From positions 9,176,001 through 9,240,000 of the forward strand of contig OY986946.1 of NCBI GenBank assembly GCA_963920595.1: DNA of 64,000 nt, read 5' to 3'. Of this stretch, positions 14,125 through 18,997 are shown in pieces. The notes beneath the pieces were generated by a model. It was not told the DNA's origin. It ran no database searches and worked only from the letters and a program-made list of their open reading frames with translations. The stretch's first letter is position 1, and each line of letters opens with the position of its first letter. The position numbers and the translations under genes were made by a program. Source of the DNA: Eimeria praecox. Lineage: Eukaryota.

Positions 14125-14162
<38 letters not shown>
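13059..14162 (-). rRNA. 28S rRNA 3' portion (gene interrupted by retroelement copy 1)
   Basis: Minus strand starts TTAAGGTAGCCAAATGCCTCGTCATC, contains the sarcin-ricin loop AGTACGAGAGGAAC and ends ...GATTCAGCCTGCGTTGTACGATGTGT. Confidence 0.95.
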
Positions 14163-17100
14163 TTTACAATAAATGATATTTTATCATTTTCAGTCATCTA
14201 AGAACCCCAGAAGGTAATTTTGCGCTCTCTTTTGTTGCGCAGAATTTACCGGCTGGGTTCGCGCGTCAGTGTCAGTGCCTGCGGCCGGTGCAAATCGGCT
14301 GCAAATCCTTCTCCTTTTTTATAATTCTTTTTTCTATAGCATTAAAACATCAAATTTTAAAAGATGGAAGAAGAAGAGGTAAAAAAGGATGCGGTTTCAC
14401 CGCTGAACTCAGCTGCGCCCATGCGGCCCCCACAGCCGCAGCCGACCGCTCGGCCGAACAGCAGTTCAGCATTGAAAGAGGCCCCTTCTGGAATTATAAT
14501 TGCAAAACCAAGGACCTCCAGCAGCCGCAAAGAAGGAAAGGACTCAGAAGATTCTCAAGACGAGGAGGAAATGCAGATCTGCGAGCCCGCCCCACACATG
14601 GATCTGCCGCAACAAGACCCGTCTCCATGCAGTGAGGAGATAGAAGTAGAGCAGATGCTAGATACGGCAACTGATAATCAGATAGTCCCAGGTTCGATTC
14701 CCAGCAGGGAAAAGGACGCTGATAGTCTACAACAACAGCCAGAGGGATTGTCAGAGCTCGATAGCGATACCTCGATCTGTCCTGTGGATACAGGACAGCT
14801 CGAAGTGTCGAAGTCTACAGCCGTAGCAGATACCGTAGAGGCTCAAATGGTGGAGGAGACGGCTCAGGGCCCCCAAGCAGCAGAGGAGAGCTGCCCTGAT
14901 AACGGGCAACAGCAGCAAGGGGGGCAATCTACAAGCCCTGCGCGGCTCATCAGCTTCAGGGATCTAGTCCGCCAGTTTGTAGAAGAACGCAGAGCCAGAA
15001 ACCTTACACCAGACGGAGAGGGGGAGTCACAGCAGTTAGCAGATGGCAGCAGCATACAAAAGGACAGCGTAGCTCCAGTGTTCAACTGGGGACAAAGGAG
15101 CAACGCAAATTCAGCAGAAAACACCCCAGAGAGCATCAACAGAACGCCAAAGGGGGTGGCCACACAGCCTGTCTGCTGCCCCAACTGCAAACGTGTATTC
15201 AACTCCGCAAGGGGGCTCTCCCTTCATACACGTAGGGGAGGAAAAGGCAGCTGCGCTCTGAGGAGAAGAGAAATCATCAATGAATGTCAGAACGTGGCAA
15301 CCCCCGTGCCGTTGACGTTCCGTCTCAATAAGCGCATTCAGGAGGAAGCAGATGAAGATGTAAACAAATTGGGTGATAGACCCCGTCTAGCAAAAAGAAG
15401 AAGGGGACGAAAAGCACCTACACAGGGCCCCCCAGAGCCGACTCCTACAGAATTGGAAGGGGATCGTGCGATGGCGGGCAGACAGGCAACACCGGCAGCA
15501 ACAGCAGAGCAGCACAGGCCTACAACAACCGACGGAGAGGCGCTGCTCATAGATAAGTGGCCGGAGAGAGCTCAACAGCAGAGGAACGACCCGATCACGC
15601 GTCGAAGACCACTTCGAATACCTCGTCTAACAGCAGAAGCGGGCGCAAGGCTTACAAGACAACTGATGGAACTTGCGCAAACTACTGCTACCAAGATGGT
15701 CGACAGCACTTGGGAAGAAGTGGAAGCCGCAGTAGAAGGCTTCACCACTCAGCTTTATGATGCGATTTGGTTTGCAGATAAGAACCCCAAGGAAGCAAAT
15801 CAACGTGGCAAGAAGAACCAGCCCTCAACGAACACCGAGGACTCAGGAATCCGAAAGACACGCGTGTCCCCAAGGCAGGCTCAAGCACAGGAAAACGTCG
15901 ACAAGGCGTTGCAAGCACTCCGAGCAGAGGAGAGAGCCCAGCAGGGGAAAGAGTCTGGAGCATCGCTTGATGATAAACTGAAGAAGCGTGCCCTTGAAAG
16001 AAATCTACGAACTGCGCGTCGTCGCCTCATCATGATCCTCAAAGAAGAGTCAGCACAAAATCTCCAAGCACTCTACATGAAAGACCGAAAGAAGTGTGTG
16101 GAGCAACTACTAGCTGACGAAGATCAACCTAGAAGCCAAGATTGTCCCATCCAACTCAGTGAGCTGGAGGCACACTTTAGAGATCAGCACTCTGAGCAAA
16201 TAATCGACTCCACTTCTGATGTTGCTCATGAGTTCTTAGACCCTTTGGCTTCAGCCCCTAGTGGAGCGTTTGCGATTGATCTATACTTCACAGAAGAGGA
16301 TGTGCGTGCTCAGCTGCTAAAGAGCAACCTTAAGTCTGCAGCAGGGCCAGATGGGATAGGGTTTTTTGTGTACAAGAGGTTTGAAGAGGTGCTTGTTCCA
16401 GCCATGACCGCGATATACAACGCGTGCTCTCGGCATCGACGTATTCCAGAGAAGTGGAAGGAAAGCGTGACCGTTTTGATTCCCAAGCAGGGCGATCCTA
16501 ACGATGTGAAGAGTTGGCGACCCATCAATCTACAGGACTGTATCTACAAACTTTATGCAGCACTGTGGGCCAGCAGGATTACGGACTGGGCATCACAGTC
16601 CGGGGTTGCCTCCAAGTCGCAGAAGGGATTCATGCCAGTGAATGGGTGCCATGAGCACCTGTTTCTTGCCCAAAGCATCCTCAACTCCACGCGCAGAGGC
16701 TCGAAACCGCTGTACATGACGTACTACGACTTGAAAAATGCATTTGGATCCGTTCCCCACGAGCTCATACACGTTGTCTTGAAGGCTCAACGGCTACCGA
16801 AGCACGTTCGTGAGATCATCATGGATCTCTATCAAGGAGCGAGCTTCTGCGTAGTGACAAAGGAGGGCTGCACAGGTCGAATTGAGAACCGACGAGGAGT
16901 GAAGCAAGGGTGTCCTCTCAGCCCGATCCTCTTCAACCTAGCCATTGAGCCTCTCCTGCAGAGATTAGCAGCTTGTGATGCAGGCCTCGAACTGCGTACG
17001 ACAGACGGGAGACCGCCTGTGAAGGTCTCTCACATGGCGTATGCAGACGACCTCAAGACGGTTGCTAGTACTCGAGCAGGAATTTCTACACTTCATCAAG

Positions 17101-18946: not shown

Positions 18947-18997
18947 ACGTCATAGTTACGTCCGCCGTTAACCCGCGCTTGATTGAATTTCATCACA

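Follow-up and report, generated by a model that had tools for sequence, protein, structure and literature searches.

R2 retrotransposons nick the 28S ribosomal RNA (rRNA) gene at AAGG^TAGC (PMC7650587), and the top strand is cut 2 bp upstream by R2Bm in vitro and mostly at 0 by Drosophila R2 (PMC2718515). Planarian R5 inserts within a few bp of a TTAA in the same hotspot, and Pokey, a piggyBac DNA transposon of Daphnia, uses that TTAA as well (PMC3849761). Other planarian elements, LIN9, LIN24 and LIN26, lie antisense in 28S at other positions (PMC4640811, S6 Fig). The Utopia elements are placed with R5 in the NeSL clade; they target U2 small nuclear RNA (snRNA) genes and, in oomycetes, have an RNase H domain upstream of the reverse transcriptase (RT) as their hallmark (PMC4640811). 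We analyzed a 64,000-nucleotide window of the Eimeria praecox genome (contig OY986946.1, positions 9,176,001 to 9,240,000; coordinates below are those of the window) and describe an element inserted in its ribosomal DNA (rDNA) at this hotspot. We think it probable that this is a site-specific, likely active retrotransposon without long terminal repeats (non-LTR), with a single intact open reading frame (ORF) and a likely place in Utopia/NeSL, which sits antisense at one 28S position in Eimeria.

In the window, rDNA units follow one another in tandem, one every ~19 kb, and every rRNA gene lies on the minus strand (four matches each to 28S, 18S and 5.8S; no 5S rRNA or tRNA gene was found in the rDNA unit). 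The 18S and ITS1 sequences are coccidian in appearance. The 28S gene matched at 13059-21312 (minus strand) is interrupted by a full-length element of 4,784 bp, copy 1 (14163-18946, plus strand), whose single ORF encodes 1451 amino acids (14364-18719, plus strand). Copy 2 is also full length (33198-37988, plus strand; 4,791 bp), with the junctions of copy 1 and an intact ORF of 1463 amino acids (33400-37791, plus strand). Copy 3 is a 5'-truncated element of 1,039 bp (52246-53284, plus strand) that begins at the position matching 17908 of copy 1 and shows the same target breaks. The element is thus present, in the same orientation, in all three rDNA units whose insertion site falls inside the window; the site of the fourth unit lies outside it. 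In the rRNA sense the locus reads GTAACTATGACGT-[reversed element]-TTAAGGTAGCC. All three copies start directly after GGCTACCTTAA and share the 3' junction ...TTTCC|ACGTCATAG, and copy 1 ends in TTTCC without a poly(A) tail. These observations confirm a non-LTR retrotransposon antisense in 28S rDNA, as an earlier, sequence-only reading of copy 1 had noted, and the opposition of rRNA (minus strand) and ORF (plus strand) on which that reading relied recurs in each of the three scorable units. That reading did not include the likely Eimeria host, the link to Utopia/NeSL, the loss of 2 bp at the target, or copies 2 and 3.

The window stretch, or part of it, was found in 20 listed public runs from 16 studies; no RNA run was listed, which says nothing about expression. 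Two contigs of run X1, with a loose end at 18941, show the element end followed by ACG. This run is possibly the source sample itself, and its support is therefore not fully independent. Raw reads of run X23 matched only conserved RT patches at <95% identity; they come from a relative and are silent on the junctions. Because copy 3 keeps the ACGT-side end and the two X1 contigs read from the element end into ACG, misassembly is unlikely.

One of the four runs examined, X1, also yielded the empty site: a contig joins 14162 to 18947 with GA between them, so that insertion removes 2 bp (TC in the rRNA sense), the last two paired bases of helix 69. Conserved rDNA records were partly filtered from the runs and depths were summed over contigs, and the depth of the empty-site contig (399) is not comparable with that of the element. 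In the rRNA sense the empty site reads GACGT TC TTAAGG TAGCC, or in longer form GGACGTAACTATGACGT TC TTAAGG TAGCC. At the element's 5' junction, the 28S flank (14152-14162, minus strand; TTAAGGTAGCC in the rRNA sense) holds the R2 nick site and the TTAA dyad; at its 3' junction, the flank (18947-18965, minus strand) holds a helix 69 variant of the form GGACG-loop-CGT, with the closing TC deleted. The 3' junction lies upstream of the R2 nick by exactly 8 nt.

In target-primed reverse transcription, 5'-truncated copies keep the 3' end, which is the priming side. Copy 3 retains the ACGT-side end, and that side is therefore the element's 3' end and priming side. As judged from these sequences, the first nick and priming would fall at the 18947-18965 flank and the second-strand cut at the 14152-14162 flank. 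The letters of copy 1 had already led to the proposal that priming follows ATGACGT on the rRNA-sense strand, about 8 nt upstream of the R2 nick, and both the junctions and the empty site support it.

The cuts can be compared with those of R2Bm by setting the element-strand target, CCTTAA/GA/ACGT, against the R2Bm target, TCTTAA/GG/TAGC. In each case the first nick is 4 nt from the center of the TTAA dyad and the second cut comes directly after TTAA. The 2-bp target deletion is also shared with R2Bm in vitro. The junctions are thus a mirror image of the R2Bm cuts about the dyad; that the dyad itself causes this geometry is an inference of ours. They also sit 0 and 2 nt from the TTAA described for Pokey, which shares this 28S site with our element but is a cut-and-paste DNA transposon that duplicates the TTAA and has an unrelated enzyme (PMC3849761).

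In six of six metagenome loci bearing the upstream 20-mer (L001-L006), the 20-mer continues with TCTTAAGGTAGC, and the target sequence of these loci folds as a 6-bp hairpin. The ACG/CGT pair is therefore a compensated host variant of helix 69, not element DNA. This variant, GGACG/CGTTC, replaces the usual form, and these six metagenome loci, on unrelated-looking eukaryotic contigs that are all uninserted, carry it as well. The metagenome scan returned these six empty sites and no element (tblastn empty).

The protein of copy 1 has a single N-terminal CCHC zinc finger (aa 272-297; 15177-15254), an RT core (Pfam RVT_1, aa 706-934, E = 4.7e-32; 16479-17165) with a YADD motif (17040-17051), and a C-terminal CCHC knuckle, RHN and PD..D..K restriction-like endonuclease (RLE) motif that align with R2Tg (18153-18470), all on the plus strand; Pfam also detects zf-RVT. 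The C/C/H/C residues of the N-terminal finger are kept in five of five full-length relatives aligned, across which the first 420 aa are otherwise poorly conserved. The stop codon of copy 1, at 18717, comes 12 codons earlier than in copies 2 and 3 and trims only a basic C-terminal tail. In an AlphaFold2 model of aa 265-1451 (predicted local distance difference test score 87.6), the seven best Foldseek matches were R2 chains solved by cryo-electron microscopy. When the model was aligned with VIA-align, LINE-1 ORF2p and R2 scored alike (Z 21-29), and the model helices at 148-310, ahead of the RT, aligned with the pre-RT region of LINE-1 ORF2p and R2 chains.

We considered whether the element might be a true R2 in inverted orientation, or a sense R2 locally misassembled. 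Its domain order is that of R2 (R2Bm, R2Tg), as are its RT-RLE fold, its hotspot and its 5' truncations, and MGEScan has put 17 Eimeria elements down as 'LINE R2', with no target given in the accessible text (PMC9141347). The shared architecture (single ORF, zinc finger, RT, CCHC knuckle and RLE) is common to other RLE clades, however, and R2 chains win the structural comparison by default, being the sole RLE retrotransposons among the Protein Data Bank matches. The R2 position is not that of the element either: instead of AAGG^TAGC in the rRNA sense, all three copies use the opposite strand 8 nt upstream, in a non-animal host, and both their agreement and the polarity of the truncated copy speak against an inverted or misassembled R2. 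No Myb domain was matched by Pfam in the query N-terminus or in six relatives, whereas a control protein was positive (P0036, which is not an R2). A fold search with the N-terminal model returned generic helical hairpins as its top 50 matches (Z up to 9.4) and no Myb-like chain, an absence that proves nothing.

Sequence similarity also argues against an R2. Searches used aa 560-1451 as the query, and the statements that follow concern the best 120 of 264 matches, which were listed. Five unnamed full-length relatives (P0001-P0005) are 64-80% identical. The next proteins share 34-39% identity, and many of these are RNase H-bearing proteins from oomycetes that score up to 563 bits, far above R2Tg (228 bits) and R2Bm (106 bits). 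Judged by similarity, the RT is thus not closest to R2, a sequence absent from the trees below. From its bit scores, relatives and tree placement, the element is not an R2; the idea of an inverted or misassembled R2 is already largely refuted, and we give it almost no credence. With respect to R2, then, the targeting is convergent, and the convergence proposed in the sequence-only reading holds to that extent.

Which family, then, does the element belong to? We take the oomycete proteins as Utopia because they carry the RNase H hallmark (PMC4640811). In a 50-row RT tree (one row dropped as too short), an Eimeria clade (Shimodaira-Hasegawa-like approximate likelihood-ratio support 100) had an unnamed sister pair (96) and grouped, with support 99, with proteins of oomycetes and of the gregarines Lankesteria and Selenidium. 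A 140-row FastTree (six rows dropped as too short) recovered the grouping with oomycete and gregarine elements. The named homologues come from Eimeria necatrix, mitis, maxima, praecox, brunetti and media, the best being an E. praecox fragment at 93% identity. Two gregarine transcriptome proteins, P0148 (Lankesteria, 37%) and P0065 (Selenidium, 30%), fall in the same broad group, and the lineage may therefore be old in Apicomplexa. No relative with flanking DNA was found in the viral contigs or prokaryote genomes searched. Two of P0001-P0005 lie on contigs of ~19.2 kb, the size of one inserted rDNA unit, which is suggestive only.

The domain plan points to Utopia too. Like Utopia, the element combines a single ORF and an N-terminal zinc finger (one, where Utopia has one to three) with RT, a C-terminal zinc knuckle and RLE, and has a precise 3' boundary; its RT groups with the RNase H-bearing oomycete proteins, which are also its strongest matches outside Eimeria, a comparison that included no Repbase-labelled sequence. 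It differs from Utopia in lacking RNase H and in its target, all three copies being antisense in 28S rather than in or beside U2 snRNA genes; the window contains no U2 gene. On these sequence comparisons, the element likely belongs to the Utopia branch of the NeSL clade. A U2-like antisense target, suggested by a shared GGC..TTGGCTA, proved a weak lead: the match is a 7-mer only and out of register, its end being 8 nt from the nick at the 28S target and 15 nt in U2.

Prior work bears on how new this is. Kojima and Jurka 2015, in its accessible text, gives no alveolate Utopia and no Utopia that targets 28S (PMC4640811), and in the accessible part of a 2026 review the sponge Utopias are not in 28S and apicomplexans go unmentioned (PMC13580325). 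Repbase holds three characterized Eimeria transposable elements (PMC9141347), and the Repbase name Utopia-1_ENe is placed in the NeSL clade (PMC7650587). 'ENe' probably stands for Eimeria necatrix, and the family itself may already be catalogued. We found no literature tying an element of Eimeria or another apicomplexan to 28S, in a search that left most subscription papers and Repbase outside its scope.

The sequence-only reading had also held that the known antisense rDNA elements use other sites. This part is not supported, as the insertion site of R5 lies within a few bp of the TTAA at our element's junction (PMC3849761). Our element likewise lies a few bp from the Pokey TTAA. In an account attributed to Burke et al. 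2003, R5 reportedly sits 8 bp upstream of R2 in antisense orientation; it reportedly has two ORFs, unlike our element. The position of our element is probably the same as that of R5 and, if that account is right, neither site nor orientation is new.

Antisense 28S targeting might be ancestral to part of the NeSL clade and have been retained by alveolates and flatworms through shared descent, without convergence. R5 and the LIN elements are RLE elements that insert in 28S and belong to the NeSL clade, as ours likely does; LIN9, LIN24 and LIN26 have the antisense orientation, and the 3' flanks of LIN24 and LIN26 also start AC(G/A)T (PMC4640811). Yet R5 and LIN form a clade of their own, with 96% support, apart from Utopia in the published tree (PMC4640811), and their hosts belong to another kingdom. 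LIN24 and LIN26 insert 79 nt further upstream and end in T-runs, as the Eimeria element does not, and LIN9 lies ~540 nt downstream of the element's site. The nearest named relatives outside Eimeria are gregarine and oomycete proteins; among the matches listed, most of them unnamed, no R5 or LIN sequence was identified, and no named planarian protein occurred among the 240 matches listed or the 20 representatives. We therefore regard descent from a common 28S-targeting ancestor as quite unlikely, and favor a Utopia-type element that reached the site separately.

We next compared the copies with one another. Copy 2 is 98.7% identical to copy 1 (1.3% difference), whereas the rDNA between copies is 99.85-99.94% identical from unit to unit (difference ≤0.15%), which suggests that copies 1 and 2 are separate insertions. 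Changed codons between the two comprise 7 synonymous and 4 replacement changes in the RT-RLE region (aa 560-1451) and 12 synonymous and 19 replacement changes in the N-terminus (aa 1-420). The differences cluster strongly in a 320-bp stretch of the N-terminal linker (15282-15602) that includes a 6-bp indel, and this cluster suggests recombination between subfamilies. Copy 3 carries the letter of copy 2 at all eight sites in its span where copies 1 and 2 differ. Because two ORFs are intact, the copies diverge by 1.3% against ≤0.15% for the rDNA, and change in the RT-RLE region is mostly silent, the element is likely still active.

An active antisense element would need a source of RNA. It is a logical consequence of the orientation that sense pre-rRNA cannot be the element's template: such RNA lacks the coding strand, and an antisense source is therefore needed if the rDNA copies are templates. 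In this the element differs from R2, as it does in having no detected Myb domain or hepatitis delta virus (HDV)-like ribozyme. Its 5' untranslated region (UTR; 14163-14363, plus strand, 201 nt) folds far better than shuffled sequences on the plus strand (z = −4.5), whereas the 3' UTR (18720-18946, plus strand, 227 nt) folds no better than shuffles (z = 0.2 to 0.4). There was no ribozyme family among four weak Rfam matches to the 5' UTR and no hammerhead or HDV-like match there; an HDV-like descriptor, run without a positive control, gave 0 matches on both strands. By eye, the 5' UTR contains a possible GT...AG intron-like stretch (~14215-14340), with an AG|GTAATT that resembles a splice donor and, directly before the ATG, a pyrimidine tract closed by TAG. 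The donor-like site and the tract are hints, in the sequence, of possible processing of an RNA polymerase II (Pol II) transcript. Transcription of the element in antisense from a promoter of its own is the most likely source we can propose.

Several other candidates were set aside. A split promoter of initiator and downstream promoter element (e1-7631976) was a poor fit by eye, the element beginning TTTAC. A sigma-70 scan found 5 promoters against 4.7 expected, which is chance level and irrelevant to a eukaryote. Splicing of the antisense element from pre-rRNA was rejected by inspection as well, as GT..AG does not fall in register at its ends and shifting the GT/AG pair would take out more of helix 69.

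The spacer deserves mention here. Without the element it is ~8 kb long, with CAG-rich and TG repeats. Just past the 28S 3' end, at 12190-12925, each unit has five CTTAAGGTCTTCAAAAGGCACGTCATGA-like repeats in the same place, and these contain both target halves, CTTAAG and ACGTCAT, ~12 nt apart; ACGTCAT occurs seven times per unit, five of them within these repeats. They are possibly a terminator or factor-binding repeat, and their likeness to the target may be chance. In the element's direction the region lies upstream, and it is a candidate antisense promoter region.

A different source of RNA is conceivable. The rDNA copies could be passengers, their RNA coming from a master copy outside rDNA under a host Pol II promoter, with the insertions themselves silent and spread by unequal crossover. 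The antisense copies have no obvious route of transcription, Eimeria homologues occur on long contigs, and run X2 contains diverged contigs at low depth as well as joins of the element to non-rDNA sequence. Against this, the ORFs of both full-length rDNA copies are intact and the changes in their enzyme region are mostly silent, and the named homologues of non-rDNA appearance are mostly fragments. In X2, contigs like the window reach depths of 2,076-3,084, against 45-53 for the diverged contigs, a rough hint rather than a copy number. We consider it unlikely that the rDNA copies are mere passengers. Two side observations concern such joins. At a loose end at 16385, one X2 contig joins the element to 28S sequence like that near 13707, which suggests a deletion across neighboring units or a chimera. 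In run X9, labelled RNA and probably DNA, a 1,185-nt contig of a ~91% identical relative runs 5' past 14174 into several hundred letters unlike the window's rDNA flank; the 5' end of this relative may extend further, or it may be inserted at a different site.

Other points weigh against the reading we prefer, that of a Utopia-type element specific to one 28S site. The contigs that carry several of the named Eimeria homologues are 70-225 kb long, and in X2 there are contigs on which the element, near its 3' end, runs into other DNA; the family is therefore not confined to rDNA, and its 28S specificity may not hold across the genus. The nick positions are derived from the junctions alone, and the 2-bp deletion could stem from processing instead of a second nick. 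In Drosophila R2 the top-strand cut is at 0 and not at −2, so the mirror image of the second cut is valid for R2Bm only (PMC2718515). Both trees are unrooted and contain no Repbase-labelled Utopia, R5 or R2 sequence, and in the 140-row tree the grouping with oomycete and gregarine elements has a support of only 92. Finally, copies 1 and 2 may have identical 5' junctions because a single old insertion was multiplied by unequal crossover, and their difference in sequence may have built up since.

With these points in mind, we propose the following mechanism for the Utopia-type element. The protein would bind the DNA of helix 69-70, facing against rRNA transcription, and would nick the rRNA-sense strand after GACGT, where reverse transcription would be primed. 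The other strand would be cut 2 bp away, directly after TTAA, with the loss of TC/GA. The RNA would come from antisense transcription, most likely from a promoter within the structured 5' UTR or immediately ahead of it, rather than from RNA polymerase I (Pol I) pre-rRNA followed by ribozyme release. In evolutionary terms, the lineage would have exchanged the U2 snRNA target of its Utopia relatives for 28S, a step taken separately from R2 and probably also from R5.

A more specific account is possible, and we put it forward tentatively. This may be the first non-animal, still-active element of the R2 hotspot: a Utopia-derived apicomplexan lineage that came to helix 69-70 from U2 without sharing that step with R2 or R5, with mirror-image cuts about the TTAA dyad, one CCHC finger, no Myb domain and its own antisense promoter working against Pol I, which occupies a large share of the rDNA units and whose target is unpublished for the lineage. 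Three things are new: a 28S-hotspot element in an apicomplexan host, copies that are intact and appear to be recent, and the mirror geometry, mapped with its 2-bp deletion. R5 near the same TTAA, the Eimeria 'LINE R2' matches and the name Utopia-1_ENe are already known or possibly so.

R2-hotspot elements have been described from animals, and an intact apicomplexan one would extend this niche across eukaryotic supergroups, within a phylum reported to be nearly transposon-free, with mostly fragmented LTR relics. Because the element uses a different strand from R2 with an 8-base offset, the target was likely reached from a different family, and this would show unrelated RLE lineages repeatedly reaching the same TTAA dyad, from either side. 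Two questions become testable: whether sequence, meltability or chromatin makes this 10-bp stretch so attractive, and by what route an antisense rDNA element is transcribed if it can use neither Pol I read-through nor a ribozyme. The protein also offers a natural comparison for work on R2 structure and gene insertion, acting on the same DNA with another N-terminal module and the opposite polarity. Finally, since the insertions disrupt helix 69, how often they occur matters for rDNA dosage and for rDNA as a marker in Eimeria.

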